Shown one piece after another: positions 7,447 through 64,000 of a stretch of 64,000 nt of DNA. Below the pieces are notes generated by a model. It had not been told where the DNA came from. It made no database searches and saw only the letters and a program-made list of their open reading frames with translations. A program made the position numbers and the translations under genes. Each line of letters opens with the position of its first letter. Position 1 is the stretch's first letter. Source of the DNA: a virus (taxonomy: Duplodnaviria; Caudoviricetes); IMG/VR virus record IMGVR_UViG_3300037400_002261, positions 32,001 to 96,000 of that record; one strand, given 5' to 3'.

Positions 7447-8581
7447 ATGATTGGAATATATAAAATAACTAATTTAGAGAATGGAAAAATGTATGTTGGT
7501 CAATCTGTTGATATAAATAGAAGATGGAAAAATCATAAAAGGTTATTAAATAATAATAAACATCAAAATAAACATTTGCAGAGTTCTTGGAATATTTATG
7601 GATCTGAAAAATTTGAATTTTCAATTATTGAGTTATGCAATGAAAATGAATTGGATGAGAAAGAAATATATTGGATAGATAAACTAAGAACTTATCATGG
7701 TTTTCCAGATTGTAATGGATATAATGATGCGCTTGGTGGAAAAGGTGCTTCATGTATTCATCCTGTATTACAATTTAATTTATCTGGTGATTTAATTAAA
7801 AAATGGTAGAATGCTCTATATGCTGCTAGAGAACTTAATATTGATGCTAGTATCATATATTTATGTATACACAGAAAAATTAAACGGGCTGGAAAATATA
7901 TTTTTTGTTATATTGAGGATTATAATAATTCAGATAGTCTAAAATGGTATTTTGATGATAGAAAAGTCGCTCCAGTATTACAATGTGATTTATTTGGAAA
8001 TATTATTAATAAATGGGATACTTGTCAAATAGCTAAATCTGAATTGGGGTATAATCCTATTAGATCTAGAGAAAATAATACTTTGGTTTCTCATGGATAT
8101 ATCTATATTTATGAAGATGATTATAATCAATTGACTGATGAATATTTACAATATATTCGTAGTGCATATAATAAAGTAAAGGTAAAAAAAAGTTATTCAA
8201 TTAGATCAGAATGGAGTTATTGTTCAATCATTTGATTCTATGCATGATGCAGCCAGAAATGGCTTTCATATTAGAATGGTGAGAGAATGCTGTCAACATA
8301 AGCGAAATACATTAAAAGGATTTGTGTTTTGTTATGATGATGAAATAGATAATTATACTCCAGAAAAATGTTATGAATTATGTAATTCTAGAAGAAAAAA
8401 TAATCGTGGGAAAAAAATTATTCAAATTGATAAAGATAATACAATTGTAAAAATTTATGATAAATTATCTGATGTTTTAGTTGATGGTTTTAATATGAGT
8501 AATGTAAGTGATTGCTGTAATGGTTTAGTTGATAACTATAAAGGATATAAATGGATTTATGAAAAGGATGGTGCTATATGA
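7447..8581 (+). pseudogene. free-standing GIY-YIG homing endonuclease with NUMOD1-like repeats; one TAG (Gln) and a frameshift at an A8 run
   Basis: MIGIYKITNLENGKMYVGQS is the GIY-YIG motif. Reads through TAG 7807. At A8 (8184-8191) the repeat VIQLDQNGVIVQSFDSMHDAA continues in the +1 frame to TGA 8581. Confidence 0.8.
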
Positions 8582-9624
8582 TAAGATTAAGACCAGCACT
8601 TACAGAAGAAGAAGTGAGAAAAACTGGCGTTGCATAGATAAGGCAGGAATATAATAAATTAGCCAAAGATTATAATCGTATAATTAATGGGGATGTATAT
8701 TTATGTCAAAAATGTAACGAATTTCACAGTGTTGATGCTTTCTATAGTGATAAAAAATATGCAAGTGGTTTATTCCCTATATGTAAAAAATGTTTAATAG
8801 GTATGGCTTGTGACTATGATAAAAAAACAAATCAATATACTGATAATCGTGAAAAGACAATGAAGGTTTTGGAAATGATGGATTTGCCATATATTGATTC
8901 TATGTATCAATCCGCTCTTACTTCTTGTGCGGAAGATGTTCAAGACAAACATCGGAATACTGCATGGTCACATTATATTACTGTTATTAAATCTCTTCCA
9001 AATTGGCGTGGTAAAGGATGGGCAGATTCAGAATTACCATCAGATCAATTTGAGGAAGAAGTAAAAATAAATAATAAAACTCTTAAAAACGCAGTTAAAA
9101 GATTTGGACCAGGTTACACAAATGAAGATTATATGTTTCTTGAAAATGAATATCAAGATTGGATAACAAGATATGAGTGTAATACAAAGGCTCAAGAAGC
9201 TGCATTCGAAAGATTGAGTTTTAAAAAGTGGGAAATTAATAATGCTACCAAGAAAGGTCTTCCAACCAAGGATTTGGATAAGACTTATCAAGAATGGCTA
9301 GGTACTGCTAACATACAACCAAGGCAGACAAGTATGGATGCTACTGCTGATGCTCAAACGTTTGGAACATTAATTCAAAAATATGAAGAAACTAGACCTC
9401 TTCCAGAAATTGATCCCGACTTGGAAGATGTTGATAAGATAGGCTTGCTGATTGATGTGTTTTTCCGTGGACACGCAAGCAAGATGTTAGGATTAAAAAA
9501 CACGTTTTCGCATTTATATGAAAGATTTATGAAAAAATATACAGTAAACAAACCAGAATATGATGAGGATACTGATAGCGAAACTGTTTTTGAAAAAGTA
9601 TTTGGTAGTATGGAGGATGATTAA
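8578..9624 (+). CDS. terS: probable terminase small subunit (YonG-like, Zn finger); TAG=Gln
   Basis: ATGA overlap start; one TAG at codon 20; CQKC...CKKC zinc finger; directly upstream of terL with TAATG coupling. Confidence 0.7.
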
Positions 9625-11390
9625 TGCCACCAAAAAATAAAAAGACATTAGCAGATGTTCAGAAAGAAAAGTCTGAGCGTTTAATGGACGGGATCGCATA
9701 TTGGGCAGCTTTCTATAGAAAGAATGCTCATAGATTTGTAAATGATTTTTTAAATATTAAGCTGAAAACATTTTAGAAAATTTTAGTGTACATGATGATG
9801 GTTAGCACTAATTTTCTATATATTGCAAGCCGTGGTTCTGGTAAGACTTGGCTTACAGCTTTATATTGTGTAGTCCGTTGTATTTTATATCCAGGCACAA
9901 AGATTTGTGTTGCATCTGGTGTAAAATCATAGGCTGTTGAAGTAATTACGAAAATTGATACAGACTTCTTGAAAAATTATTCATGGGGTTCTTAGAATTT
10001 AAGAAATGAAATAGAATATATATCAACGAGTGTTAATAATGCTCGTGTAGATTTTAAGAATGGTTCTTGGATTACTGTTGTTACTAGTAATGATAATGCT
10101 CGTCATAATCGTGCGAATATTGTTGTTGTAGATGAATTTAGGATGGTTGATTTAAATGTGATCAATACTGTATTGAGAAAATTCTTAACAACATCAAGAA
10201 TGCCTGGATATTTAAGTAAACCAGAGTATGCTCACTTACAAGAGCGTAACTCTGAAATATATATGAGTTCAGCTTTTTATCAAAGTCATTGGAGTTTTGA
10301 TAAGACAAAATCATATTTTGCAAATATGTTGGATGATAAAAGGCGATATTTTTGTTGTAGCCTACCTTATTAGCTTGCTATTAAAGAGGGATTATTATCT
10401 CGTGAACAAGTTGAAGATGAAATGAGTGAGGCAGATTTTGATCCTATTGCATTCTCTATGGAGATGGGTGCTGAATTTTATGGAGATTCTGATGGGGCAT
10501 TTTTCAGATATGATGATATATCTAAATGCAGAAAAATAAAAACTCCATATTATCCTATTGATTTTTATGATAAGCGTGGTATCAATGTACCAGAATTAGC
10601 AATAGGGGAAAGAAGAATATTGTCGGTTGACGTAGCTCTTATGGCATCAAGAAAACATAATAATGACGCTGCTGCTATCACAATTAATGTAGCATTACCG
10701 AATAGTGATACTTCTTATATAAGTAATATTGTATATGTTGAAACATTTGAGGGATTAACAACAGATGAATTAGGACTTACTATAATGAGATATTTTTACC
10801 ATTATAAATGTACTGATTTAGTTCTGGATAGTTCTGGCAATGGTTTAGGTGTTTATGATGTTATTATTAAAGAAACATATGATCCATAGCTTGGTATAAC
10901 GTATGATGCGTTATGCGCATGTAATGATGATAATATGGCAAGTCGTTGTAAAGTTAAAAATGCAAGAAAATGTGTTTGGTGTATTAAAGCATCTGCGGAT
11001 TTTAACTCAAATGCTGCTACTGCTTTGAGGGCTGGTTTTAAAAATGGAAATATTAATCTTCTTGTTTCAGAATTTGATGCCGAGGAAATTATAAAAAAGA
11101 CAAAAGGATATTCTAAGTTATCTGCCAAAGAATAGGCTACATTAAGTTTGCCATATTTATAGACAAGTCTTTTGATTAATGAAATGATAAATTTGGAACA
11201 TGAGATAAATAATAACAAGGTAAAATTAAAAGAGCGGTCAGGAATGAGAAAGGATAGATTCAGTTCTATTGAATATAATTATTGGATTGCACAAGAACTT
11301 GGTTTAAAACTTAGACCTAAACAATCATCTAATGATTTATTAAAATATATATCTATTACTCCACCTTGCCGTTCAAAAACTTATGATTAA
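9624..11390 (+). CDS. terL: terminase large subunit (588 aa); TAG=Gln
   Basis: One frame across 7 TAGs. LKTF[TAG]KIL Q-motif, Walker A ASRGSGKT, Walker B VVVDEF, nuclease motifs SVDVA, LVLDSSG and RKDRFSS. Confidence 0.95.
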
Positions 11391-11409
11391 TTAAGAAAGG
11401 AGGCGCTTC

Positions 11410-13002
11410 ATGCCCAGAAAACCTAAAGCGCAAGAGGCGCTTACTGATAGTCGTGAAGGTGTTATGAGCCAACAACTTGTTCCAAAAAAGAAAAAGGATG
11501 AAGTTGAGGTTATAAATAGACCTACGGCTTTAGATTTTGAAAAAACCAAAAAACTGAAAGAGTTGATTTTGTAGGATGTTTCCAGAGGTAGGACGCAGAC
11601 TGCAATGCAATATACAAAAAGTTTGGTTTCTACTTATTTATAGAATCCATATAACTTCAGAAGTTAGATAATTGGTGTATCCAGATTTTTATGGAGAGTT
11701 AGTGCGATTTATCGTAAGATAATTTTTTATTATGCTACAATGCCTAAATATAATTATTGTATTGTTGAAAGACCAGAATTTACAAAAACTCCTAATGTTA
11801 AAAAAATGTTGAATGATTATGAGACAGTTCTTCGCAGAGTACATCAATTTAATTTTAAAGAAGAATTTGCCACTGCTATTGCTCTTGCAATACGTGATGG
11901 TTCATATGTTGGTTATATGTATGATAATGAAAATGAAGGGTCTTTTCTTCATATGCTACCAGTGGAGTATTATAAAATACGTGGTAAGAATGAAGCTGGA
12001 CAATGGGTGGTATTTTTTGATGCTACATATTTTGCAGTTGGTCAGAATAGAATATTTGTAGAAGGTATTGATGGTGACACTTCTGGGTGTTGGGCAGATG
12101 AGTTTATACAAGGATGGAAAGATTATAATTCTAACAGGGATTTAAGATGGTTTATGTTAGATCCATCTAAGACTATAACTCTTCTTGGTGGACTTCAAGA
12201 TGAATTTGATAATCCATTACCTTTTTTTACTGGGTTGTTTCCGTCTATTCTTAATATGTTATCTGCTGAAGAACTGGTAGCTGATAGAACAGAATTAGAC
12301 AACTTCTATCTTCTTCTGTTAAAGATTGATACTTTTGATGAAAATACTGTTGATGATTTTGAAGTAAGCCTTGAATTGGCTAATGCTTATAAAGATGCTC
12401 TTGAGGGTATTATGCCGAAATTAAGTGGCGTAGGTCTGGCTCCAGGTATGGTGCCTGAACTTATTACGTTTAATAAGGCTAATTCAACTAATGACGAAAG
12501 TATTGTTCAGGAAAATATAAATAATATTTTTGCTCAATCTGGAGCAAGTCAAACAGTTGTTTCTTCTGGAGATTCACAAAGTGCATTGAGTATTAAATAT
12601 TCGCTAATTAATGATTTTAGCTATGTTGCTCTTCTTCTTTCTCGCCTTGAAAAAAATTATCAATATTATATTGATAAAAATATTTCCGAGAATACTATTT
12701 TCACCATTCATCATCAAACACATTATAATGAAGATGAATATCTTGAAAAGTTAAAAACTTCAGCGACTCTTGGTGGTTCTGCCATGAAGTATGGCACAGC
12801 AATGAATATGACACCATATGAATTTTATTGCACTATAAAATTTGAGTCTGCAATTGGTTTAAAATCTATGATGGAGCCTCTTGAGTCTAGTTATCAAAAG
12901 TCAGCGAATGATAATGATGATGCAGGTAGACCAAGGGCTTCTGATGATGAGATATCTGGAAGCGCAGAGAGAACGAGAAATATAGTTGATGATAATGTAT
13001 AA
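11410..13002 (+). CDS. portal protein (YonE-like, 530 aa); TAG=Gln
   Basis: AGGAGG RBS; 3 TAGs in the first 90 codons; follows terL; acidic C-terminus with the GRP motif typical of portals. Confidence 0.85.
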
Positions 13003-13024
13003 AAATATAAAGGAGTTGATGCAT

Positions 13025-13201: not shown

Positions 13202-13237
13202 TTTTTTATCACGAAACGCCATACTTTTACATATTAA

Positions 13238-13572: not shown

Positions 13573-14748
13573 ATGGCTTATAATAAAGAAACTGGAATGT
13601 ATGAAGGGTTTATATATAAAATAACAAATAATATTAATGGTCATTTTTATATTGGACAAACTCGTACAACTGTTGAAGAAAGATTTTATAATCATACAAA
13701 AGATTATTCAATAAGTAAATATCAAAAATACGGTTTATACAAAGCTTTTAAAAAGTATGGCGTTGATAATTTTAGTGTTGATACAATAGAAACTCATCAA
13801 GCATTTACACTTACAGAATTAAATAATATATTAAATGAAAGGGAAATGTTGTTAATAGCAGAAAATCGTAATATATATGGTAAAGATTTTTTATATAATC
13901 ATTCTCGTGGTGGGGACTATGATGGTTGTGCAACTGAAAATATACCTGTGATACAATATAATTATATAGGTGAAGAAATTAATAGATTTGATTCTATTGT
14001 TGATGCTAAAAGAATCACTGGGGTTTCTGGTATTAGTGGAGTTATTAATAAAAAACCATAGAATTTATCTTCTGGTGGATATATTTGGAGAAAACAAAAT
14101 GATCCTTTGACAAATGAAGAAATTCGTTTTATTATGATTCATTTTAATACAATGCCGATTAGATAGTATGGATATAATAATACATTTATTAAACAATATG
14201 ATTCAGTTAAAGAAGCTTCTGAATCTATTGCCAATGATAGATACAATAATAATGATATTGTATCACATATAAAAATGTGTTGTGAACATAAAAGTAAAAC
14301 GGCATACGGATATATATGGAGATATGAATTTGATAATTCTTTTGATGATGTAGATTATAAAAACTGTCAATTTGCAATTGAACAAAGAGAAAACGGCACT
14401 GGTAAATTACTTAATACGTTTATCTCTACTATAGAAGCAGAAAAAATAACTGGTGTTGATGATAGTATTATTTCACAATGTTGTAATCATAATTTAGATT
14501 CAGCGGGTGGTTATTTGTGGAATAAAGTAGGGGATTATAATCCGAATATTCTTAAAACTATAACAATTAAACCAGTTGTTCAATTATCAAAACAAGGTGA
14601 ATATATAGCCACTTACGATTCTCCGACTTGTGCTCAAAATGCAACTGGTATTTATTCTAAAAGTATTAGCAGAGTATGTAGAGGCTTTTTAAAATCTACT
14701 GGTGGATATAATTGGCAATATTTATATGATTATTTAAAAATATTATAA
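13573..14748 (+). CDS. free-standing GIY-YIG homing endonuclease with NUMOD1-like repeats (391 aa); TAG=Gln
   Basis: GFIYKITNNINGHFYIGQT; repeats PVIQY, PIR[TAG]Y and PVVQL with GGYxW ends; 2 TAGs join the track fragments. Confidence 0.9.
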
Positions 14749-14761
14749 TAGGGGGTGAAAT

Positions 14762-16552
14762 ATGCGTAAGAAAAAACTTTTATTTATGGAAGATCTTTTA
14801 CAACTCTTCCGTGAAAATAATCTTACAAAATTTTCCTCTTCTGATTCAGGTTATAGATTATGTGTGTAGGTTCCAGCAACTTTCGAAGTTGAGGACGAAG
14901 TTGATGATGATCATCGTGGAATGATGCGTTTAAAAATTAGGGTTTTCCATATAGATGCTAATCGTAATGGAAGTTTTGTATCCAAGAAAGCTGCGAAAGA
15001 TGCAATGCCTACTATTAAAAATAGACCAGTTATGGCTTACATTCATTAGCGTGATGATGGTGAATGGGATTTTGAAGCACATAATATGACTATTGAAACA
15101 GATGAAAATGGAAATAATTATTTTGATTATTAGGAAAAATAGGTCGGTTCATTTGACGAAAGTGAACCGTTTTTTGAATATGATAAAGAGTTAGACAAAA
15201 CGTATGTGTGTGCATATGCATACATAAGTGAGGATTATACTCGCGCCTGTGATATTATTCGCAGAAAAGGCGGGACGAAAAATTCAGTGGAATTGTCCAT
15301 TGAGGAATTAGCATACAATGCTAAAGAAAATTATCTTGAACTTCAAAAATTCTACGTATCAGCTTCGACGTTGCTCGGATCTTATAATGATGGTACAGAA
15401 GTAGCGGAGGGGATGATTGGCTCTCGTGCTGATATCGTAGATTTTAGCGAAAAGAATAATTCTGTTTTATCTGATAGACAAGAATTAATTAATGAAGTAG
15501 CTACTGCTGTTATTAAACAGCTTAGTGATAAAAAGGCAAATTTTGCTGACTATAACTACGGAAAGGAGGAAATTCCAGTGGACAAAGAAAACGTAAATGT
15601 TGAATTTGAAGAGGCAAATACTGATGAAGTCGAAGTAAAAGAAGAAATGGCTGAAACAGTTGAAGTCGAAACCACTGAAGAGGAAACTCTGGTACTTGAA
15701 GCAGAAACTTCTGATGAAGATTCTGTAAAGAATACTGACGAAACTCCCGAAGTGGTTAATGAATTTGCAGATGATGATCCTGCTGACGATCTTGTCGATG
15801 AAGGTGGCTCTGAAAGTGATCCAACTGATAATCCAACCGAGGAAACAACTGAGGATGAGCATCAGTCTACTTCTGCTATTGAAGATGAAGATTCTACGGG
15901 CACTAGAGTTGAGAATAGTTTAGAGTATTCCGCTACTTTTAATGGTAAAACACGTTCTTGTTTTGCAACATTAAATGAGCAGCTTGAAGCTCTTTGGGTT
16001 CTTGTTAATGATACGTATGGCGAATCTGATAATGAGTGGTACTCGATTGACGCAGATCCAGAAAAAAAGTTGGTATATATGCATGGATGGAATAATAATT
16101 ATCGCCAGTCATACAAAGTTAAGAATGATGTGTTTAGTCTTACTGGGGACAGAGTTCGTATATATCCTATATGGGTTTCAGAAGACGAGAAGAAAGAGAT
16201 TGAAAACATGAAGTTTAATTACTCTTCTATCGAGTCTGAACTTAATTCTTATAAAGCTAAAGAACTTCATTCTGCTCGTGAAGCAGTACTTGCATCTGAT
16301 GATTATTCTGTAATGGCAGATTTTGAAGAGTTTAAAGATCTTAAATCTCATATGGATGAGTATTCTGTCGAGGAACTTACAAATAAGGCTGACCTCGTTT
16401 ATGCTAAGTTTATGAAATCCAACTACAGTACTTTTGCTGCTAATGAGCAATCAAAGAAACGTAGTATGGTATTTATGGCTTCAAGCGAAAATACAGAAGA
16501 AGAAAGACTTCCTTACGGTGGTCTTTTTAAAAATTTTAAAAGTAAAAAGTAA
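14762..16552 (+). CDS. prohead protease/scaffold (YonD-like, 596 aa); TAG=Gln
   Basis: FHIDANRNGS and NSVEL protease-like motifs, then a long acidic scaffold; 4 TAGs near the N-terminus; lies between portal and capsid. Confidence 0.8.
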
Positions 16553-16578
16553 ATAATAATTACATAGTCTATTTTACT

Positions 16579-16606
16579 TGGCGGGGATAATATCCCTGTT
16601 ATTTTT
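16579..16606 (+). terminator. terminator-like hairpin
   Basis: TGGCGGGGAT-AAT-ATCCCTGTTA followed by TTTTT. Confidence 0.5.
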
Positions 16607-16637
16607 GCAAAAATTTAAGAAAGGAGAAATGATAGCT

Positions 16638-17159
16638 ATGATTAATGCATTTTTACAGGCTGTAAATAAGCACATTGTTGCTGAAAGTACTAATCTTCAG
16701 GCTACATATGATGCTAAACACATTTTCAATGTAAAAGCTGGTGCTGACATTGATAATGGTCGTGTTGTTAATCTGGATGATATGGCTTGGGAAGCTAATG
16801 AGTATTTTACCATGGTTGAGCCTACTGCTACTTCCAGAGTTGGTCTGGTACTGAGTGTACCGATTGGTTATGATGAAAGACCGAAAGCTGCTACTTATGA
16901 GCATAACTTCTATAATGGTCAGGGAGAGATCATGAGAGTTTATGATCTTCTGATTGGTGATAAGTTCACTGTTTCTGCTAATGGTATTGACGGCGGTGAC
17001 GCTGTTCAGAAGGGTGCTTATATTGTTGCAGATGGTTATAATCTGAAAGCATAGGCTGCAAAACCCGCTGCAAGTGCTGGTTTCGTTGGCGAAATCGTTG
17101 AGGAAATCAACCGCACCAATGGTAAGTTCTATAAGATTTTTGTTCGCAAGAATGGTTAA
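16638..17159 (+). CDS. capsid decoration/cement protein (YonC-like); TAG=Gln
   Basis: 173 aa with one TAG at 17052; highly biased codon usage; immediately upstream of the major capsid gene. Confidence 0.7.
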
Positions 17160-17177
17160 TGAAAGGAGGGAAATGTA

Positions 17178-18281
17178 ATGAGTAAATTTATGAATTTTGC
17201 TGCTAATACTAAAGCTGCATTTGATAATAACGAGTCTGCGTACATGAACTTCTCTCAGCTTCTTGCTGATTATAATCGTGGAGTATTCCAGTCTGGAATT
17301 ACCAAGGCTGATGCAGATGAAATGATTAAGGAAAAATTCCGTCTTATTATGGGTATTGACGAGACTGCTTCTAAGAAAGAAATTCGTAGAGCAATCAATC
17401 GTCATAAAAATGAGATTTTCGAAGTCATAGAAGATACTGTTGACAATATGTTGACATCTGGATGGACAGATAATGAATTTTTCAGGGACTTCGTGGAAAC
17501 CAAAAATCTCGCTCTTGGTGATACCAACGAGTTTGAAACAGAAGATGAAACCGTTCTGACAGTTGGTAAACTTAGCGGCGATCACTGGGATATTGATAGA
17601 CAACGCCTCGGAATTGGAGAGGTGTTCCGTGTACCGACTTATTGGGTTGGTCTTGGTGTATACGAGGAATTCGAGCGTGTTATGCTCGGAAGAGCAGACT
17701 GGACTCGTCTTGTAAATGCTATCTATGAAGCTATGGATAAGTATGTTGATGAGGTTGTATATCAGGCCGTTATGGAAGCTGGACAGAAGGTTCTTCCTGG
17801 TTCTGAACAGTTCTATAAGACTGCTGCTCTTGATGCTGCTGCTCATGATGCCTTTATCACTATGGTAGAGGATGTGTAGGCCGCAAATAGGGGGACTGAG
17901 GTAGTTATTATGGGTACGAAGACTGCTCTTTCTAAGCTGAAGAATCTGGCTGATGTTAACTGGATTGCTAAGGAAGATCGTACAGACCATAGAAACCTTG
18001 GTCATGTTGGTATCTTTGAGGGTACTCGTGTTGTTGAGATTCCGCAGGTATTTGCTAAGAATGATACTACTACAAAGATGGTAGATCCTAACGTTCTGCT
18101 GATTATGCCTGTAGCTGATAATAAGTTCATCAAACTCGTTTATGAGGGTGATGCTATGATTAAAGAGGTTACTGATAATACTGTTAACCAAGATATGACT
18201 TATGAAGTTAAGTATATGACCAAGCTTGGTGTGAGCACCATCATTGGCAGATATTTTGGCACCTGGAATATCACGACCTAA
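17178..18281 (+). CDS. major capsid protein (YonB-like, 367 aa); TAG=Gln
   Basis: Track fragments 17178-17879 and 17910-18281 are in frame and joined by one TAG (17877); AGGAGG RBS; size and position fit. Confidence 0.88.
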
Positions 18282-18310
18282 TTTATTAAATTTGAAAGGA
18301 TTAAAAGGAT

Positions 18311-18898
18311 ATGGCTACGACCACAAAAAGGAGAGTTGTCAAGACTGCACCAAAGGAAACTGTTGATGAGAAAGTTACTTTGAATGAAGAGCCTGTTGCC
18401 GAGAAAGTGGTTAAGAAAGAAGCAAAGAAAGAACCACGCCAGTTTAATCAGAACGATCTCATCCTTTGTCGTTCTGTAACTGCTGGTTGGCTTGGTTGCA
18501 GTGGTAAGTCTGGACAATATTATGTATTTGAAAACTTTGGAGATGAATGTGAAATCGAATATCAGGATTTGTTTGCGCTTAAAAGTAGGCATTCTAACTA
18601 CATCTATGCACCCCATTTTGTAATTGAGGATGAAGAGTTGCTTGAAAATCCTCGCTGGGCAGATGTAGCTAAGTTCTATGATGAAAAAGTATATACTATG
18701 GAAGATGTTGAAGAGGTACTTAATCTTCCAATTAATAACTTTGAAGCTGCTCTTAAAAAGCTTCCAAAGGGATTGGCTAAATCTCTTCAAGTGCGTGTTG
18801 CGCAAAAAATTGAAGATGGAACATTTGATTCTCTCAAAAAAATAAAAATCATCGATGATGTTTATGGAACTGATTTCAGAAGTATTATCGCTGATTAA
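18311..18898 (+). CDS. hypothetical head-associated protein (YonA-like)
   Basis: 195 aa, no TAG, directly after the major capsid gene. Confidence 0.75.
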   Translation: MATTTKRRVVKTAPKETVDEKVTLNEEPVAEKVVKKEAKKEPRQFNQNDLILCRSVTAGWLGCSGKSGQYYVFENFGDECEIEYQDLFALKSRHSNYIYAPHFVIEDEELLENPRWADVAKFYDEKVYTMEDVEEVLNLPINNFEAALKKLPKGLAKSLQVRVAQKIEDGTFDSLKKIKIIDDVYGTDFRSIIAD

Positions 18899-18913
18899 GA
18901 GGAGGGTTGAATC

Positions 18914-19381
18914 ATGACCACCTCAGAATATGATGAAATCTACTCACGCTTTTATTTGCGTGTTAAAGATTATGAAATGTCTGGATTAAAGGAAAGTTTA
19001 GTAAAGGAAATATTAAACGGATATTTGCGGTCTGTTATTTCCAAACCTATGGTTAGAAGATTATTCACTTCTATCTCAATGGACGATGATATAGAAGAGA
19101 TTGATTATGAACTCCGTGATTAGTTAGACGAAGAATCGGATAAAGATTTTGTTGAAGAAGTTTTGGCGGTTGGAATGGTTGAGAGATGGGTTAATCCAAG
19201 ATATCAATCAACTTTATTAACTAGTCAACTTCTTACAAATTCTGAGCAAAAATTTTATAGTTAGGCTCCTCACTTAGCTGAGATGCGAGAAATGTATAAA
19301 AAGGCTCAAACCGACCTTCGCAAACTTATCCGTGATAGAGCTTATTCTTTAAGTATTATTAATGGAGTTGAAACAACGTGA
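18914..19381 (+). CDS. putative head-tail adaptor; TAG=Gln
   Basis: 155 aa across 2 TAGs (KFYS[TAG]APHL); GGAGG RBS; position. Confidence 0.7.
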
Positions 19382-19710
19382 AAACAAAATATGGTTGTTA
19401 TTCTTCTAACTAGATTCGTTCTACTAAACTTAATATTCGCAAATCTATCTATTTTTTATTGCTCTATGTTGACCCAAAAACTAGAGATGAATATTCAGGC
19501 GTAAATGTTGCAGACGCTTTTTATAGTTTGCAAAAAAAACTTAATGGGTTAAATAGTATTTTACTTGAGCCGATTGAACTTGTTGAGACAATGAGTTTAT
19601 TAGAATCGGCATATATGGAATATAATAGTGATTGTTTTGATTTTTAGAAATATAGAAAATTAATATTAGATGCTGGGTCTAAGATTATGAAAATAAAGGA
19701 AGGTGATTAA
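19378..19710 (+). CDS. hypothetical virion-module protein; TAG=Gln
   Basis: GTGA-coupled start; 110 aa across 2 TAGs; ends TAA. Confidence 0.7.
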
Positions 19711-19711
19711 T

Positions 19712-20902
19712 ATGATTACCTTTAAAAATTTTCAAAGTCTTCATGAGTCTTCTCTCCCAGGAAGGGCGAGAAAAATGCAGAGTGACTAGATAATGCTTAA
19801 TACTTGGAATCAAGATATCCAAGCATAGACTGCTTATATTTATGATTATTATCATGATTAGCAATCAGATGAAGCATTACAATTAAATAATCTTCATCCG
19901 TATGATGACCCGCAAAAAACCGCATTGTCGATTAAATTTATACGTCATGAAAGTTAGACATATAATAAAGATCAAATTACATTTTGGTTACAAATGTAGC
20001 CAAATCAAGAATGCAATCAGGATTATTATGATGAAGTTCTTGGTAATCGTTATGGGGCAACTTTCCCAATTGGAAATTATGTTGATATAATGCATGAGGA
20101 TGGTTCTTATAATAAATGGCTTATTGTTGATAAGGCAAATTATAATGGTAATCAATTTCCAACGTTTGAGATATTAAGATGTGATTATGTTATGTAGTGG
20201 ATTTTTAATGGATATAAATATTAGTGTCCAGCTGTTTTAAGAAGCCAGAATTCGTATAATTCTGGAATTTGGTTGGATTATAAAATTCAATCAGTAGAAG
20301 ATTAGCAAAAATTCGCTGTTCCGATGACTAGAGATACTGAGACATTATTCTATAATATCAGAATGATTATTGATGCAAAGGTAGAAACAGAACCTCGTGC
20401 ATGGCTTATATCAAAAATAAATCGAATATCTCCTAATGGAATATGTAGGGTAACACTTGCATAGGATACTTTTGATCAACACAATGATTATATTGAGAAA
20501 GATGAAGATGGGAATATTGTTGGAATGTGGGCAAATTATTTCAATCATAATATTGAGCCAATACCAGCAGTTTAGGATGATGATATAATAACATCTTCTA
20601 TTAATGCTAAGATTATATGTTCTGGTCGTTAGCAAATTAAAGTTGGTGGTTCAGCTAAAACATTCACTGTTACTTATTATGATTATAATAATGAAGAGTT
20701 ACCAGATTATACAATTGGTAATTGGTCATTTGAAATTGATGGTACTGTTGTGCCTGATGATTTATTAACATTAACATCATCAGAAAATAAGATTAAAGTT
20801 AAATTTTTAGGTGACGATTCATATATAGGTAAAATACTTACTGTAAAAAACACATCGGAGAATGCAGTCGCAGAACTCCAAATTGAAATCATCGCATTAT
20901 AA
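19712..20902 (+). CDS. putative head-closure protein with beta-rich C-terminus (396 aa); TAG=Gln
   Basis: Absent from the standard-code track. The frame has 11 TAGs and no TAA/TGA, and exactly fills the gap between flanking genes with an RBS. Confidence 0.8.
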
Positions 20903-20914
20903 GGAGGGATTTGT

Positions 20915-21481
20915 ATGGAACTTACGCAAGAACAATTACAAGAACTCCGACAGTACAAAGCTGTAATGGATGATGATAACATTAGGTTTAAAGAGATAAT
21001 AAAGAGGAATTTAATAGAAGACCCTCTTATAATTTATCTTTTAAATAATAAAGAGTTGGAAGAATAGGATGCCGATCCAAGTGATTATCTTGGAGTAAAT
21101 ATTCTTCCATAGTTTTTAATTCATCCTACTCAACACAATGTACAAAATTTTATTTGTTATGAAGTATCATTTAAAGAAACACCAAGATATAATGATGTTT
21201 TAAAATATATTAACGTTATTTTTTATATTCTTTGTGAAGAAAAAAATAATATTGAAAAGCAAACTGGTATTGCACGACATGATTTAATTGCTGCAAGAAT
21301 TAAGCATATATTTAATTGGACAAATCTTTTTGGTACACAATGCCATATTGTTTCTAATATTCCATCTGTAACGGATAATGATTATTCCACTCGTACTCTT
21401 ACATTTGAATTAACAATGCCATTAGATGTTGTTAAAACAAAAGATGGTTCTTCTATGGTTATTAATAAATTAGGTGGTTGA
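20915..21481 (+). CDS. putative tail terminator/completion protein; TAG=Gln
   Basis: AAGGAGG RBS; 188 aa across 2 TAGs; ends TGA. Confidence 0.7.
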
Positions 21482-21490
21482 GTTAGCGAA

Positions 21491-22264
21491 GTGCAGTTTG
21501 ACCGTTTAAAGATGTATTTTGGAGAACCATTTGATGTTGGTAATGGCATGAAAATATTAACTCCAACTGTTGGTGATATTCTAGAACTCCCAAATTCTGA
21601 TATAACTTTTTATCAGACACTTTATATATGGGTTGCAAACCCAACTACATATAGATTAATGCTTTGGGAAAATGGAATAGACTGGAATAAAATATCTAAT
21701 TATGAGTTGTTTTTGATGATATATAAATCCGAGAATCCAGTAGTTAGTAAAATGATTTTTGGAGATGTTGATTTTCAAGGATTTTAGTTATACACAAAAA
21801 CAATTCCAGATAAAGATGAAGATGGAAATGATATAGAAAAAACTGAAGTGACATTATATAATCCAGAAATTGATATTGAGATATCAAAAGATCATTATAA
21901 TTTAATTTCAGAATATTTGAAGGCAGCATTCAATATATATCCAAAAGTAGAATTGGTAAGAGGTAAATCTGCTAAAGAATGGATAATTGACGAAGAAAGA
22001 CAAGCATTAAACAATAAGAAAGATGATGAAAATCATTCTACTCTTCTTCCTCTTGTTTCTAGCTGTATAAATCATCCTGGATTTAAATATAATCTTTAGG
22101 AACTAAAAAATGTCAATTTTGTTTAGTTTATGGATAGTGTTCAAAGATTGCAAATATATGAAAATAGTACTGCTTTATTAAAAGGATCTATGAGTGGATT
22201 CGTTGATACTTCCAAGATAGATAAGGATGAATTTAATTTTATGAGAGAAATATCTCATAAATGA
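21491..22264 (+). CDS. hypothetical tail-module protein; TAG=Gln
   Basis: 257 aa across 3 TAGs (FV[TAG]FMDSVQRLQ); GTG start is uncertain. Confidence 0.75.
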
Positions 22265-22328
22265 AACTGTATTTAAGCCCATAATTGGCTTTTATATTAA
22301 AAAAATATTATGAAAGGAGAAAAATATT

Positions 22329-23105
22329 ATGGCATTTAAGTTAGATGATATTATTATTGATCGTATTTAGATGGCAATTGCTACTGATACTAATGATACT
22401 GAAATGTACTATGTTCTGACACAGCTTTCTGAGGCTAATATTGAGATTACTGCGGAGTCTAAAGAAGCTCGTGACAAAGACGGGACACTGATTAAAAAGT
22501 TCTGGACGGGTAAGAGTGGTACGTTTACGGCTACTAATGCAATGATTAATCTGAATGTTATTGGTGAAGCTTCTGGTTCTAAGAAACAGGCTCTTGCTGC
22601 TTCAGATCTTTTCCCAGCAATTAAGACTGGTAAGCCTGGTGAAGTTGTTGCAACTCCTTATCTGAGCGAAGGTACTCTTAAGGTTCACGTAATTGGTAAT
22701 AATGGTACTATGGGTGATAATGTTACCTCTAAAGCTACTGCTACTGGTTATGGCACAGAAGGTGCAACTGTAACACTTCCGCAGGATATTGAAGGTGCAA
22801 CGAAGTTCGTTATGGAATATCAGAGAACTAATCCTAGCGCAGTTGTTATTAGAAATCAGGCCGACAAATTCCCTGGAACTGTTCGTCTTGTTATGAAGGT
22901 TCTGGCTATTGAGCCTTGCTCTCCTGATAAACTTCGTGCTGGTTATCTTGTTCTTCCGTCCTTCCAGGTTAGTCCTGAAGTAAATGTTTCTCTGACTACT
23001 GATGCTACCCTTGATTATACTGGTGACCTTCAGGTTAATTATTGTGGTACTGAAAAGACTCTGTATGAGTTCTATTGGGCAGAGGATGATATTGAGGAAG
23101 AGTAA
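22329..23105 (+). CDS. major tail (tube) protein; TAG=Gln
   Basis: AAAGGAG RBS; one TAG at codon 14; Thr/Gly-rich, biased codons, followed by a strong terminator. Confidence 0.8.
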
Positions 23106-24659: not shown

Positions 24660-25664
24660 ATGGCTCGTAGCCGAGGAGTTTACAACAGAATTTATAGTGA
24701 CGAAAAATGGTTATAGGTTAATCCTGAAAATAAAGCCATAATGGATGACTTCCTCACAGAGTTGCGACAATAGAAAAAAAGTCCAAATACTATTGAAGCA
24801 TATAGACATGATTTAAAATTAATATTTATAAAAATTCTTGAAGACTTTAATAATAAGTCAGTTTTAGAAATGACAAAGAAAGATTTTCGCCGTTTAAATA
24901 TTTGGTTTGATGATTCTGGAATGTCTCCAGCGAGATGTAATAGGCTTCACTCTTCTATCAATTCAATGTTAACATTTTGCGAAGAAGATGATGATTATGA
25001 TTATGAAGTTAATTATAGTAAGAAAGTGCGTGGAGTTCCTAACGAAAAAGTAAAAACAAATGATGATGATTTCTTCTTTACATTTGATGAATTTATTAAA
25101 ACAAGGAATATTCTTGTAGAACAAGGTAGATTGTAGGATGCTGTGTTATGGTCTTTAATGTATGATTCTGGTGCGAGACGTAATGAAGTATATCAAGTAA
25201 AGAAACAAGGTCTTCTTGATGGTAACAAAACAAATATTGTTAGAGGTAAACGTGGAAAACAATTTCCACTTATTTATTTAAATGATACGAAAGAACTTAT
25301 TCGCCAATATCTTGAATGGCGTGGTGATGATGGAATTGATTCATTATGGATTAAAGGACATGGAGAAACTGCTTCTGAGATTGATTGTTCTACATTATAT
25401 GATCGTATTGTAAGTATTAGTAAAATACTTTCTGAGGTTCGTGGTGAAGAAGTTAATATTTTTCCGCATAGTTGCCGCCATAGTAGATTGCAAGCATTAA
25501 AAAAGGGATGGGATGACCGTCTTAAGGATGATGGAGGGAAAAATAAAGTATTTGAATTAGATCAAATATAGGCATTTGCACATCATTCAGATTTAACAAC
25601 TACTTCTGGGTATCTTAAAGATGAAACTGAAGACAAAATAAATGAAATGTTTGGAATTTCATAA
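24660..25664 (+). CDS. tyrosine recombinase (YomM-like, 334 aa); TAG=Gln
   Basis: SGARRNE (R), VRGKRGK (K), PHSCRHSR (HxxR), I[TAG]AFAHHSDLTTTSGY (H and catalytic Y); 4 TAGs. Confidence 0.92.
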
Positions 25665-25678
25665 AAGGAAGGTGACAT

Positions 25679-26650
25679 ATGAAACGTGGAATAAAATTGA
25701 TGATTGTATTAATGTTATTGATGTTGATATCTCCTGTTTGTGAAGCAAAAATTGTAATTAACAAGCAACCTAAATCTTAGTATTCTCGTATTTCTGGAGA
25801 AGTAACTTTTACTGTTGAAGCAACTGGTAAAAATTTAAAGTATCAATGGTATGTTAGTAAAGATAAAAAGAAGACTTGGAATAAGATTAAATATCAAACA
25901 TCTAGATCTATCATTATTAGATGTAAAAAATCAAATAGAGGATATTATTATCGTTGTCGTATGGTGGACACATCTGGTAGATATAAAACAACTAAACCAG
26001 TGCGAGTATATGTTACAGATATTGGTAAGAAATATTCATACTTAATTGATAAGAAAAGAGCTAAAAACCTTTTCTATCCGAAAGCTGCTGATGGTTATTG
26101 TTATGTGTATTGTCATGATAGAACCTATGAGCAGCAAGTGATTGATGCTATAAATATCATTAATAAAAAAATTGGAACTACTTTTATATATACAAAAACG
26201 GGATGTATAGCAGATATTATCATATTCAACTTTTATGATTATTATGTGGAAGATAATATTTGGTTTAGAGAATTAGAGAGATATTATATTTACATGGAAG
26301 GTTATGATTTAGCTGGAATTACTTTTAATGATGAAGGGATTCATTATCTTGTTGGATTAAACAGCAGTTATTTTGACTATATTATGGATGATGCAATTCG
26401 TGGAGTAATTATACACGAACTAGGACATTGTATTGGAGTTGCACATTCAAATAATAGAAATGATATTATGTATTATATAAGTAAATTTAATGATAAGATG
26501 TCAAAAAATGATATTAAAATGTTTAAAAAACAAAGAACAAAAATTAAGAATATTGGTTCTGTTAATGTTGTTTCTAAAAAATCTGGTATAACAGATAGTA
26601 TTAGAAAAAGATGTTTGGATAATTATTAGAACTAGATTCGAGGTAGATAA
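25679..26650 (+). CDS. secreted Ig-like domain + matrixin (M10/metzincin) Zn metalloprotease; TAG=Gln
   Basis: Signal peptide MKRGIKLMIVLMLLMLISPVCEA; Ig motif KQPKS[TAG]...VTFTVEATG..LKYQWY...YYYRC; HELGHCIGVAH with DIMY Met-turn. Confidence 0.85.
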
Positions 26651-26653
26651 TAT

Positions 26654-27091
26654 ATGGAATATAAATTTATATTGGATTAGGATTTGGTTGATGAATATAA
26701 CAAAATATATTTTAAACAAAATCCTAGAGCCAAAAAACCGTTTTTAACTAAACCTCGTCATCCAACACTTAATGAATGGACAATAATGAAAAGACCATAT
26801 GCTAATGCTCTAAAATAGAAATGGAAAACATTCGGAGTATGGTGGTGTAAAAAATTAGGATATGATGGTTTGATGTTGGAAAAAGTAAAAGTAGATATTA
26901 CTGTATATCAACCACATCACAGGCGTGGAGATATTGATAATTTTTGCACTCAGAAATTTCTTTGGGATGCGTTTACTGAAGCCAGATTTTGGGTAGATGA
27001 TGATTACACTCATGTTACTGAGATTACATCTAGAATGGGTTATGATAAAGATAATCCACGAACTGAAATAATTATTAAAACAGTTGATTAA
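26654..27091 (+). CDS. rusA: RusA-family Holliday junction resolvase; TAG=Gln
   Basis: PTLNEW, RRGDIDNF..KFLWDA....DDD, DKDNPRTEIII; 2 TAGs. Confidence 0.85.
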
Positions 27092-28482: not shown

Positions 28483-29253
28483 ATGATGAATTCAGAAGGT
28501 TTTAGTGCAGCTGATCTTGCGGCGGTAGTTGGAAATAATAATGATGGTTTTGGTAATGGTGGAAATGGAGCCTGGTGGTTACTTATTCTTCTCCTCTTCG
28601 CAAATAATGGATGAGGAAATGGATGGGGTGGAAATAACGGTTCTGCTATGATGGGATATGCTACATAGCAAGATGTTTAGAACGGTTTTGATCAGGCAGC
28701 AGTTATGAGTGGCATTAATGGTATTAATAATGTCCTGAGCAATGGATTTGCAAATGCAGAAATATCTCGTGCCAATACTCTTGCAAGTATTACCAGTATG
28801 ATGAATACCATTGCTATGAATCAGCAACAGGCTTCTTGTAATAATCAATTACAGGTTGCCAATCTTGGAGCGCAGATTGCTTCGGAAGCATGTGCTGACC
28901 GCCAGTCTGTAAATGATGGTGTTCGTGATATTATGGCTGCTAACACTGCTAATACTCAAGCTCTTCTTAATACTATTAATGGTGGAATTCAGTCTATTCA
29001 AGATAAATTATGCCAGCAAGAAATCAATGCACTTAAAACTCAGAATGAAAATCTTCAGACTCAACTCAATCTTGCAAATCTTCGTGGTTCTCAGGATGCT
29101 CAGACAGCGGCTATCTTAGCTAGTAATGAAGCGCAGACGGCTGCCATTGAAAGGTATCTTGCCCCGAATCCAGTTCCCGCATATATCGTACCTCAGCCAT
29201 TTGGGTGTAATTGCAACAATAATTATGGTTGCGGTTGTGGAATGAATGGTTGA
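28483..29253 (+). pseudogene. Gly/Asn-rich membrane-anchored coiled-coil protein with Cys-rich tail; TAG=Gln plus one in-frame TGA
   Basis: AAGGAGG RBS; GAWWLLILLLFANNG[TGA 28612]GNGWGG, where Trp is expected; frame continues to CGCGMNG-TGA. Confidence 0.65.
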
Positions 29254-30292: not shown

Positions 30293-30808
30293 ATGGAAAA
30301 TAATAAAATCTCAGCAATAGAATATATAAATAATAATGAGTTACTCGAAGTAAGTTATATACCATTTGATCAAAAAATGCAAGTGGTTAGTGATGTTTTG
30401 TCTGAAGTTATTAATTCTGTGGGTGGATTAAATACTACTCTTTTGCGTAGAGTTTCTACTGAAGTCTTTATTGAAACTATTACTAATATTGATATGGGAA
30501 TTGTTGATGAAAATGGTTTAAGCGGTTTTGATCAATTGTGTTATTATAATCAACTTAATACACTTAAAACAGTTATTGGTAATGAATATATTGAATTTGA
30601 AACTATTTTAAAAGAAAGAATATCTGACTATATTCGTATTGAAACAAATCCAGCTGTTACTATTAGTTCTATATATAATCAACTTAAAAATAATACGGAT
30701 AAAGTTTTAGATTATGTTAGTAACCAAATTCAAAATTTAGATATTGATGATTTTGTTAATAGGATTTCAGAAACTGCTACTGCTTTGAACGGTGGTGGTG
30801 ATGAATGA
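30293..30808 (+). CDS. hypothetical protein, possible tail assembly chaperone
   Basis: 171 aa, upstream of the tape measure gene; YIPFDQK motif. Confidence 0.75.
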   Translation: MENNKISAIEYINNNELLEVSYIPFDQKMQVVSDVLSEVINSVGGLNTTLLRRVSTEVFIETITNIDMGIVDENGLSGFDQLCYYNQLNTLKTVIGNEYIEFETILKERISDYIRIETNPAVTISSIYNQLKNNTDKVLDYVSNQIQNLDIDDFVNRISETATALNGGGDE

Positions 30809-31179
30809 AACCTAGTTCATTTTTAACTTTATATAATTCAAGAGTAAAGAATGATTCTTTGGATAGAGATAAAATTATTTCGACAATTACAGAGTTGATA
30901 AAACCTGTTGATTATATACCGTATGATGATAAAGTCAAATTAGTAAGCACTACTATTTTGTAGTCAAAAGACTCAGACTATCCAACAGCAACTCTTCATA
31001 GAAATTTTATTATTAATATAATTTCTGCTTATACTATTTTGGAAATGGATAAAGAAGGGTTTGACTTGTTAAGTAAAACTAAAATGATTGATTTGATCTT
31101 ATCATTGTTTTAGTCTGAGTTTACTATATGTGATAGCTTGTTGAATATGTGTCTTAATGACCTTGGAAAGAAGGTGTAA
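30805..31179 (+). CDS. paralogue of the preceding protein; TAG=Gln
   Basis: ATGA coupling; YIPYDDK motif; 124 aa across 2 TAGs. Confidence 0.7.
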
Positions 31180-31180
31180 T

Positions 31181-31753
31181 ATGGCATATACGAGTTTTTA
31201 TTAGTTGATACAAGATATTAAACGTGATATTGGTAAAATTGGAAATAAGATAGCAAGGGGTGTTGCAGAAATTGCTCATGAAGATATGTGTGAGGCACAC
31301 TCTTCTATTATTGAAAGTTATTATGGTGGCTATACTCCAGTTAGTAGTTATACTTACTATTATTATTCTCCAAGTGGAAAATTTTATTCTGGTCGTTCTC
31401 ATGGATATAGACGAACTGGAAATTTGAAAAATAGTATTATTCCACAGGGTGTAACAGGTAGTGGTCATTCTTTTACTGCACGAATACAAGTTGGTCCAAT
31501 GTAGATGGATGGATATATTAATTCTACTGGGAGAGTTTTTCCAGCTGAAGGTGTTTTTGATTTGATTTGGGATCAAGGAATTCGTGGTTTACCAGAAGGT
31601 TATAGAGGGCATATAGGTAATGTAAGTATATCTGCTGCGCCAGTTGGAATTGGAATATCTGGAAAACCAGATGAAGCTATGAATGAATTTATGGATAATT
31701 GGTGGGCATAGCGTGGACAACAAATGGCTGATATGATTGCAGGAAGTGTATGA
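31181..31753 (+). CDS. HK97 gp10-like tail component; TAG=Gln
   Basis: YRRTGNLKNSI motif; 190 aa across 3 TAGs. Confidence 0.7.
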
Positions 31754-31754
31754 T

Positions 31755-31785
31755 GGGAAGTGCAATATTGTACTTCCTATTTTTT
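31755..31785 (+). terminator. terminator-like hairpin before the tape measure gene
   Basis: GGGAAGTGCAA/TTGTACTTCCT followed by ATTTTTT. Confidence 0.65.
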
Positions 31786-31814
31786 ACTTTTTATTATAAA
31801 AAGGGAGGTATAAT

Positions 31815-56755: not shown

Positions 56756-56788
56756 TAGGGTGGGAGATATACTCTCCCATCCTATTTT
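56756..56788 (+). terminator. terminator-like hairpin
   Basis: TAGGGTGGGAGA/TCTCCCATCCTA followed by TTTT. Confidence 0.7.
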
Positions 56789-56808
56789 ATTAAACGAGGT
56801 GCCATGAT

Positions 56809-61936: not shown

Positions 61937-61979
61937 CTCTCTTATTATAAATATTATGATTAAAAGGAGATATTAAATT

Positions 61980-62483
61980 ATGAAGAAAGAATTATTTTTA
62001 ATTGAAGCGATCAATATTACAAGTTTTTATAACAATATGGCAGAAGAGAAAAAGAATGCTCTTCCACTTAAAGTATATTATGGATTAAAGAAAGTCGTAA
62101 ACAAACTTCAAGGTGATGTTAAACAATTTGAAGAAGTTCGTGACGAAGAAATCAAGAAAATCCGTGATATCTATTTCTCAGAAGAAAAGAGCGAAGAAAC
62201 TGCTATTCCGAGAGTGGACGAAAATGGCGAACCTGTTCTGGATGAAAACGGCAATCAGTTAACAGATACTGGTCGCAAGGTTAAAGATGAATACATTGAT
62301 GAATACAAAATCGCAATGGACACATTAAATGAGAAGCTTCAAGAAATCGCAATGGAGAAAAATACATATGAATATAATTGGGTAGATATTGGTGAGATGG
62401 TCGAGAATCTCCCAGATGATACCCCGCTTGAAAGGAGCGATATTGATATATTAGATGCTATATTCGAAGAAACTGCTGACTAA
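61980..62483 (+). CDS. hypothetical acidic protein following the tail spike
   Basis: AAGGAG RBS; 167 aa; no TAG. Confidence 0.8.
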   Translation: MKKELFLIEAINITSFYNNMAEEKKNALPLKVYYGLKKVVNKLQGDVKQFEEVRDEEIKKIRDIYFSEEKSEETAIPRVDENGEPVLDENGNQLTDTGRKVKDEYIDEYKIAMDTLNEKLQEIAMEKNTYEYNWVDIGEMVENLPDDTPLERSDIDILDAIFEETAD

Positions 62484-62510
62484 GACTGAGAACTTCTCGG
62501 TCTTCTTTTT
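62482..62510 (+). terminator. terminator-like hairpin
   Basis: AAGACTGAGA/TCTCGGTCTT followed by CTTTTT. Confidence 0.6.
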
Positions 62511-62529
62511 ATGAGAAAGGAAAAAACGA

Positions 62530-64000
62530 ATGGATATTAATGTTAACTTATCTCATCAAACAATGAGGGTTGCAACAGATCTTAAAAAGTTAGTCGCTGG
62601 TACTTAGAAGTTTGTCCGTTTCGTTTTCAAACTGCCTAGTGAGTGGGATGATTTTGATGTTATAACTGCATAGTTTGCCCAGAATGGAAAAGCAAAATAT
62701 GATTAGCTTGATGAAAACCATGCAGTTTATCTCCCATCTGAACTTAAACCTGGCGATTTTACTTTGTTAATATATGGCACAAAAAACAATGGTGAAATTC
62801 GTGCAACGGTAAATGCTCTCTAGCTTACTCTTACTCCAGATGCTTATATCTCTAACGCTAGTGAAGTCACATTCACCGAGAATATGTATGATTAGCTGGT
62901 TCAGATTATTTCTGGTATTGTTGATCATGAGAATCCGATTACAAAGGGTGAAATCTAGGGATGGGTATATGATGATGCTGTTGCGATTCTGCACGATTTT
63001 CTTGAAAGCGGAGATTTGACTGGATTGACTATTTTGCCGAAGACAATTGAGAAACAGCATCTTAATGATGAACTTCAAGCATCTATTGATCGTGCCGACT
63101 CTGCACTTTAGTATATTCCAGATGGTAGTATTACAAGGTCTAAAGTAGATTCCGAGATTGAGGGTATTTTCACTAAAGTTGAAAACCTTGAAATGGTTAT
63201 TCCAGACGCTTCTGTGCCGAGGTCTAAAGTAGACGCAGATTTTGAAGCTACTCTAGTAAAAGCTGATTCTGCGATGCAACCAAGTATATATGATCCAAAC
63301 AATCATGCTACGGATGTTTTTGCTTATACCGATTCAAAGATAGATACTGTTATTACTCCAATTCAGACTACGGTTTCTGGAATGCGTTCTGAGATTTCTA
63401 GTGCATATGTTGTTGATGGAACTACGTATGATAATCTTAGCGGTTCTGTTAATGGTGCGCTCACTAAAGCAAAATCATATACGGATATTAAACTGGCTGA
63501 TTATACTCCATATGATGTTTCTATCATTTCTACTCTTCCACCAGTTAATCTTGGAAAAGATAGAACTTTCTATTTAATTCCTAAAGATTCTGGAAATGGA
63601 TATGATAAATGGTGGTTGGTAGAAAGACAAGACCATACGAAAGTCTGGGATAATTGGGGCGGTTCTGCAACTTTGATTGTAGATGAACTTCCGCAAGAGG
63701 GAGATGTAGATGCCGACTACATTCTTGTAGCAAATGGTGAATATAAATATTATAAATATATTGACGGCGAATGGGCAATGATTGCTGGTGGTAGTGCTGA
63801 GATATTAACTATACCACTTGAAGGCGATCATATTATTATGTTAAGACATGGCGAACCAACTGACGAAGTTAGTGAAGATGATGTTACTAATGGATTAGTA
63901 TATCTTGATATTGATACTATGGATTACTATATTGCTGATGAAACTACTGATTAGGAAACGGAATAGGTTGTTCGTTCTTGGAATAAAGAAGGAAATCTTG
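62530..64000 (+). CDS. baseplate/tail fibre protein (BppU-like N-terminus), 3'-truncated; TAG=Gln
   Basis: LVAGT[TAG]KFVRFVFKLPSEWD...TA[TAG]F; frame is open to the window end with only TAG interruptions. Confidence 0.75.

Follow-up and report, generated by a model that had tools for sequence, protein, structure and literature searches.

The IMG/VR viral record IMGVR_UViG_3300037400_002261 is a linear contig of 107,285 base pairs (bp) with a CheckV completeness of about 54% and a guanine-plus-cytosine (GC) content of 32%. The stretch described here, referred to as the window, comprises the 64,000 nucleotides (nt) at bases 32001-96000 of this contig, and the whole contig was analysed along with it. 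The window opens with the C-terminal part of a YonO-family single-subunit RNA polymerase and a run of early and middle genes written in the standard genetic code, passes through a cluster of transfer RNA (tRNA) genes that includes a suppressor with the anticodon CUA, and continues into a late packaging and virion module in which the stop codon TAG serves as a sense codon, the amino acid inserted being, on strong support, glutamine (Table 1).

Table 1. Features of the window, in window coordinates unless marked as contig positions (ORF, open reading frame; aa, amino acids)
Feature	Position	Strand	In-frame TAG	Remarks
YonO-family single-subunit RNA polymerase, 905 aa	1-1122 (contig 30405-33122)	+	none	C-terminal part in window
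Standard-code early/middle genes: PIN-PhoH ATPase, ClpP-like protease, YonJ-like exonuclease, small ORFs	2116-7021	+	none	
Terminator-like hairpin (10 bp, 6 GC) and T-run	7067-7098	+		ends one base before suppressor tRNA
Suppressor tRNA, anticodon CUA	7099-7171	+		ARAGORN; Rfam tRNA 57.5 bits
tRNA-Thr(UGU) and tRNA-Asn(GUU)	7180-7331	+		clustered with suppressor
Branched hairpin followed by UUUUUU	7337-7410	+		-30.4 kcal/mol, z = -4.1
GIY-YIG/NUMOD homing endonuclease, first recoded gene	7447-8235	+	1	profile matches
YonG-like protein	8578-9624	+	1	phrog_3314; 32% identical to SPbeta locus
Large terminase	9624-11390	+	7	TAG residues 51, 103 and 250 in glutamine columns
Portal	11410-13002	+	3	phrog_2739, E=4e-62
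Second GIY-YIG/NUMOD homing endonuclease	13573-14748	+	2	profile matches
Head/virion genes: YonD-like protein, phrog_4088 capsid-region protein (E=4e-79), others	14762-23105	+	0-11 each	
YomM-like tyrosine recombinase, metallopeptidase, RusA-like resolvase	24660-27091 (recombinase 24660-25664)	+	4, 3 and 2	inside late module
Tape-measure-position ORF, 8,310 aa	31815-56747	+	164	no in-frame TAA/TGA; PhageMin_Tail at about aa 4237-4448
Minor tail/fibre protein, 1,430 aa	57644-61936	+	24	
Tail-region ORF, 1,847 aa	62530-64000	+	20	start in window; runs on to contig base 100073

Reading frames on either side of the boundary

When read with translation table 11, the + strand beyond 7.4 kilobases (kb) is fragmented into short ORFs, which merge into long and closely packed ORFs once TAG is taken as glutamine, as the preliminary description of this DNA had proposed. 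In the late region, defined for the comparison of coding density as contig base 39400 to the end and covered by greedily chosen non-overlapping ORFs, table 11 gives 71.5% coding sequence in 141 ORFs with a mean length of 114 aa, 75 of which end in TAG, whereas reading TAG as glutamine (table 15) gives 96.3% in 44 ORFs with a mean length of 494 aa, which stop at TAA (32) or TGA (12). Forty curated late ORFs, amounting to 21,415 codons, contain 295 in-frame TAG codons and not a single TAA or TGA, with out-of-frame TAA and TGA being common in the region, and profile matches span the TAG positions in the terminase (residues 12-579), the portal (57-525), the phrog_4088 protein (31-365) and also tail proteins. 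The ratio of in-frame codons, the gain in density and the homology across TAGs confirm that the reassignment of TAG is real and does not reflect decay.

In-frame TAG is found in 31 of the 40 late ORFs, and all 31 stop at TAA or TGA. The earlier statement that no gene ends in TAG holds to this extent, but it is not strictly provable for two late ORFs, in which a TAG lies 1 and 4 codons ahead of the TAA or TGA. Motifs resembling a ribosome-binding site, said earlier to precede these genes, are present upstream of 24 of the 40 naive late start codons against a background of 9.6%. The recoding extends past the window to at least contig base 105926. The nucleotide context of TAG at positions +4 and -1 is only slightly different from that of CAA and CAG, and no claim is drawn from it.

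The in-frame TAGs are not an assembly error, as they are intact in contigs assembled in independent studies of cattle and sheep. The terminase-portal stretch is present in at least 15 bovine and sheep gut studies, and contigs over the recoded genes from separate bovine and sheep gut sequencing runs (X2 and X4 among them) carry few differences from the window, with no listed difference falling on a TAG. Contig 24 of run X4 (10115-11143) differs at three places, all accounted for outside the TAGs, so that the three TAGs it covers are intact; contig 14 of run X2 (8896-11740) differs at seven, of which six are listed and lie outside the TAGs, so that at least nine of its ten TAGs are intact. Contigs from the metatranscriptome run X17 also keep TAG (10169-10468, for example, being identical), although DNA carry-over is possible and they are evidence neither of expression nor of an absence of RNA editing.

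The early module shows the opposite pattern. Among the 186 glutamine codons of the 33 larger early ORFs (contig 1-39021), which include ParB and the RNA polymerase, there is no in-frame TAG, the probability of which would be about 5e-30 if TAG were used as often as in the late genes. The first gene with a TAG begins at 7447, just after the tRNA cluster. The 78 ORFs of the early region use TAA (40), TGA (35) and TAG (3) as stops. An early ORF of 264 aa outside the window (contig 21737-22531, - strand) ends in TAG with a TAA 10 codons further on, and would acquire a short C-terminal extension under an active suppressor tRNA.

The amino acid at TAG, its tRNA and recoded relatives

The clearest indications of the inserted residue come from the large terminase, whose homologues were gathered by a search of 1.84 billion cluster representatives (clusters at 50% identity), yielding 96 full-length matches that were aligned. 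The TAG at residue 51, located 20 residues before the Walker A GKT at the Q motif, where the preliminary description had placed it, aligns with a column that is glutamine in 96 of 96 homologues; the column at residue 103 is glutamine in 94 of 96 and that at residue 250 in 73 of 89, and glutamine is the commonest homologue residue at residues 250, 504 and 513. Averaged over the 26 TAG sites covered by 10 or more homologues, the BLOSUM62 score is highest for glutamine (1.38), followed by glutamate (0.88) and lysine (0.39), and the same procedure returns the true residue for 11 of 11 control codons. Columns with at least 80% glutamine hold three of 21 well-covered TAG sites, compared with none of 245 glutamate codon sites and one of 2,323 other sites.

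Codon pairings agree with the homologue columns. In relatives at 55% identity or above, TAG is paired with CAA 25 times, CAG 15 times, TAG 10 times and GAA once, with other codons making up the remaining 14 pairings. Four correspondences between TAG and glutamine cited earlier from within the window are all present at their given positions, while a test on internal repeats of the giant ORF returned only three repeat pairs, with too few TAG pairings to use. One supporting claim found no support: TAG had been assigned to the conserved glutamine of the recombinase xQ...H...Y motif, but the columns in which the YomM-like recombinase has its four TAGs are variable, and only one of them has a glutamine majority (21 of 39). 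The assignment of TAG to glutamine is strongly supported by comparison of sequences, and its restriction to the late module holds.

TAG accounts for 30% of the glutamine codons in the late ORFs, and the share of CAG in CAA plus CAG falls from 54% in the early genes to 20% in the late genes. This depletion of CAG is the pattern to be expected if the late TAG codons arose mainly from CAG by C-to-T change, which is their probable origin.

The contig encodes four tRNAs, the CUA tRNA being the only suppressor. It has an A1/C72 mismatch, leaving 1-72 unpaired, together with G2-C71, G3-C70, G10, U35 and G73, a combination that matches the identity set of the Escherichia coli glutaminyl-tRNA synthetase (GlnRS), and its acceptor stem resembles that of tRNA-Gln. 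The nearest among 127 compared tRNAs is a Sup-CTA of phage phAss-1, assigned to glutamine by its authors with tRNAscan-SE (PMC10607447). BLAST of the suppressor against five host genomes gave as best matches three sites in Lysinibacillus, all tRNA-Gln genes (E=0.025), and otherwise tRNA-Pro in two Lachnospiraceae, all of these matches being weak and confined to short stretches of T-arm and acceptor stem; blastn against all complete E. coli genomes returned no match. A bona fide glnS (730 bits, cut-off 426) is present in Lachnospiraceae and Peptostreptococcus genomes with related prophages; the Bacilli and Erysipelotrichales genomes examined lack it. The features of the tRNA and the glnS of Clostridia with related prophages make direct charging by a host GlnRS plausible. 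The hairpins on either side of the tRNA cluster may mark it as a separate transcription unit, which is a possible reading of the two structures.

Recoding is rare among the relatives of this phage. Loci for comparison were taken from GTDB genomes (80) and IMG/VR (about 90), those in genome contigs being obtained by profile search where a single-protein query gave none. Among about 165 terminase-related loci (34-91% identity), the only heavily recoded one is L004, to which the distant phAss-1 is added. The L004 terminase is 91% identical and has 10 TAG positions in common with the window. Loci L005-L008, whose terminases are 78-82% identical, have CAA or CAG at the window TAG sites and no TAG in the aligned genes. 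Some 160 related phages and prophages from genomes of Clostridia and Bacilli likewise lack recoding in the regions examined, and the Clostridia and Bacilli in which related prophages reside use the standard code. In L008 a small number of ORFs upstream of the terminase contain TAG, none of them among the genes aligned to the window. Single terminase TAGs in six further loci (L019, L020, L153, L154, L163 and L067) were set aside, as they lie in an N-terminal alignment insertion that is probably upstream of the true start. Three contigs of 84-158 kb with SPbeta-like terminases (L016, L036 and L079), binned in one 'Candidatus Absconditabacterales' metagenome-assembled genome, show neither TAG nor TGA recoding in a stretch of about 21 kb around the terminase and are probably mis-binned phage contigs.

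A proposed timing of late gene expression and alternative explanations

The arrangement very probably represents a partial code switch of the published 'code 15' type, in which early genes free of TAG are separated by a suppressor tRNA from late genes that read TAG as glutamine. The TAG-free early genes, the YonO-family RNA polymerase included, are translatable by a standard-code host, whose RNA polymerase and ribosomes would express them; the suppressor tRNA would then accumulate and be charged with glutamine by the host GlnRS, and full-length late proteins would appear only after the tRNA had built up, so that late translation would be gated on top of transcription. In SPbeta, the late genes are transcribed by YonO. 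The demands on decoding would be severe, as the ORF with 164 TAGs requires at least about 98.6% read-through per TAG to reach a full-length yield of 10%, and such near-complete decoding implies that release factor 1 (RF1) would be outcompeted or neutralised; no candidate RF1-neutralising factor was seen in the 107 kb available. The same timing model has been put forward by Borges et al. (bioRxiv 10.1101/2021.08.26.457843).

A more elaborate proposal holds that two locks act on the late genes, namely the phage's own YonO-type RNA polymerase and a terminator-bracketed suppressor tRNA unit, that RF1 is abolished by a factor new to studies of TAG-recoded phages, and that the lineage is a recent offshoot of a standard-code SPbeta-like family. 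This combination is doubtful; if true, the double-lock recoded twig would be a tractable system in which to watch a code change arise.

Several observations weigh against a timed switch from the standard code to glutamine. The TAG share is near-uniform over the late genes (about 30%, heterogeneity p=0.016), which is as compatible with neutral spread following capture of the tRNA as with regulation. The tRNA cluster has no conspicuous sigma-70-type promoter, and a Pfam search of 20 of the larger early ORFs (at least 158 aa) found no release factor 2 (RF2), GlnRS, RF1 inhibitor or other translation factor, which, the contig being incomplete, does not demonstrate their absence. In L004, the closest recoded relative, there is a different suppressor tRNA (Sup-tRNA) with the anticodon CUA at another position, which indicates that the suppressor is not a fixed part of the design. 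Glutamate is the plurality homologue residue at 5 of the 26 TAG sites, although true CAA and CAG sites likewise have a glutamate plurality in 10 of 79 cases.

The L004 Sup-tRNA(CUA) (L004:5509-5594) measures 86 nt, has an additional stem-loop in its variable region and the same AGGGG...CCCCC-G acceptor stem, and is placed after the portal gene, not ahead of the terminase module. A similar long-armed Sup-CTA is present in phAss-1 (L014:12442-12532).

The alternative that retains most weight accepts the recoding and denies it any role in timing: after capture of a suppressor, AT-biased mutation would have let CAG drift to TAG until it reached about 30% of the glutamine codons. Such an account is possible, though on the unlikely side. 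It draws on the even TAG share, which extends to the mobile homing endonucleases, on the specific depletion of CAG in a genome of low GC content, and on the additional TAGs that L004 carries where the window has CAA or CAG. The early genes speak against it, as their complete lack of TAG points to strong selection against the codon where the tRNA is not yet available, a selection that itself produces the gate. Neutral use of TAG is also contradicted by the candidate abundant virion genes, taken as such from their inferred protein abundance, which keep CAG and have few TAGs (TAG against CAG: 1 vs 6 at 17178-18281, 1 vs 7 at 22329-23105 and 2 vs 14 at 28648-29253) and so suggest poorer decoding of TAG than of CAG.

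That TAG is read as glutamate, or as a mixture of glutamate and glutamine, is improbable. In hosts without GlnRS, a non-discriminating glutamyl-tRNA synthetase could charge the suppressor and GatCAB might not amidate the product, for which the A1/C72 mismatch in place of an expected U1-A72 could speak, as could the sites with a glutamate plurality. The terminase columns at residues 51, 103 and 250 are against it, as are the lack of any true glutamate codon site in columns rich in glutamine, the 40 pairings of TAG with CAA or CAG in close relatives as opposed to one with GAA, and the presence of GlnRS in Clostridia with related prophages.

There is very little to be said for genuine stops in a decaying or mis-assembled element or in chains of short genes, the picture given by the short TAG-ended ORFs of table 11, in view of the open frames (8,310 of their codons being consecutive), the unbroken homology, the cognate tRNA and the TAGs kept in L004 and in the independent cattle and sheep assemblies. 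Equally hard to credit is a host that itself reads TAG as sense and that the phage merely matches, as TAG would then be expected throughout, early genes included, whereas the phage brings its own tRNA(CUA) and its relatives among the phages and prophages of Clostridia and Bacilli are unrecoded; TAG is not known to encode glutamine in any bacterium.

The late module in relation to SPbeta and other recoded phages

Some features of the late module stand apart from the question of timing. Both homing endonuclease genes appear to be optional mobile insertions, as they are bypassed in a sheep-gut contig of high coverage, in which 7332 is joined to 8696 and 13656 to 14750; these apparently mobile genes carry in-frame TAG as their neighbours do. 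Antisense to the capsid-region genes (16653-18191, - strand) runs an ORF of 512 aa that table 11 leaves open; it is probably not a gene but a side effect of the codon bias of strongly expressed + strand genes. The 8,310-aa ORF is free of cysteine and nearly free of internal repeats, shows a PhageMin_Tail domain only at about aa 4237-4448, and is 3.6 times as long as SPbeta YomI.

The phage can be regarded, from its gene content, as SPbeta-like in the broad sense, having a YonO-family polymerase, the late gene order, and a homologous terminase and portal, which bears out the earlier assignment to an SPbeta-like lineage with its own RNA polymerase. The polymerase matches phrog_8308 at E=1.7e-91, the profile to which SPbeta YonO scores 1220 bits, and its BLASTP alignment to YonO is weak but collinear (E=1e-6). 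The gene order yonO, yonJ, yonG, yonF (terminase), yonE (portal), yonD ... yomM (recombinase) ... yomI (tape measure) is common to SPbeta and the window, and the window terminase is 49% identical to YonF. In blastn, identity to SPbeta is about 64% over 24% of a 3.4-kb terminase-portal query (9624-13002), which is too low against a genus threshold of about 70% and places the phage outside the genus Spbetavirus. The two differ in the length of the tape-measure ORF (8,310 aa in the window, 2,285 aa in SPbeta) and in their code, as the regions examined are written in the standard code in SPbeta and in SPbeta-like phages from Staphylococcus, Mammaliicoccus, Clostridioides and other hosts.

Late-gene recoding of TAG to glutamine with phage Sup-tRNAs has been published for crAss-like, Lak and 'gemstone' clades, and large Agate phages of the cattle gut are among the code-15 phages of that study (bioRxiv 10.1101/2021.08.26.457843). 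These phages share with the window TAG-as-glutamine structural genes, standard-code early and replication genes, a Sup-tRNA(CUA) and reliance on a host synthetase, and also have close standard-code relatives, recoded homing endonucleases and the ruminant gut among their habitats; neither SPbeta nor a phage RNA polymerase is mentioned by Borges et al. (10.1101/2021.08.26.457843). The habitat (cattle), genome size and TAG recoding of the present phage are compatible with the Agate clade, the comparison being by description only. Two TAG-recoded Agate phages carry RF2, whereas none is seen in the 107 kb of this contig, and integrases of the small recoded prophages of Borges et al. avoid TAG whereas the YomM-like recombinase carries four.

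A second published system is phAss-1 of the human gut, from the proposed genus Phassvirus (GenBank OQ749652, NCBI 'Caudoviricetes code 15 clade'; PMC10607447), a gut phage of siphovirus type, about 136 kb in size, that reads TAG as glutamine in its terminase, portal, tape-measure and tail-fibre genes and has Sup-CTA tRNAs, no aminoacyl-tRNA synthetase and a predicted Clostridia host. It has 36 tRNAs compared with four in the window contig, and its proteins are only distantly alike (terminase 21%, portal 20% and capsid-region protein 26% identical), so that the window phage appears to lie outside Phassvirus. The phAss-1 terminase (L013:23534) has a TAG at the same invariant-glutamine column (window residue 103) despite 21% identity, which is either convergence or chance. 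Its authors compared phAss-1 with Spbetavirus genomes (PMC10607447), and no paper was found that links SPbeta-like, YonO-bearing phages to recoding.

For annotation, the consequence is immediate: table 11 mis-annotates this contig and its relatives, producing 141 fragments for about 44 genes and hiding a tape-measure gene of 25 kb, and rumen virome catalogues need code-15 gene calling for this lineage. The about 160 standard-code relatives around the recoded lineage should help in dating and dissecting the capture of a stop codon, for which the data indicate CAG-to-TAG change, TAG avoidance by virion genes that are candidates for abundant products, and suppressor tRNAs that turn over between close relatives. 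The suggestion that the recoding may be undescribed does not hold for the late-gene code-15 switch itself, which has already been described by Borges et al. and for phAss-1 (10.1101/2021.08.26.457843; PMC10607447), and the general concept of phage stop-codon recoding is unchanged; what is new is that a further lineage, of SPbeta type, from ruminants and equipped with an RNA polymerase of its own, joins the phages that show this known switch.

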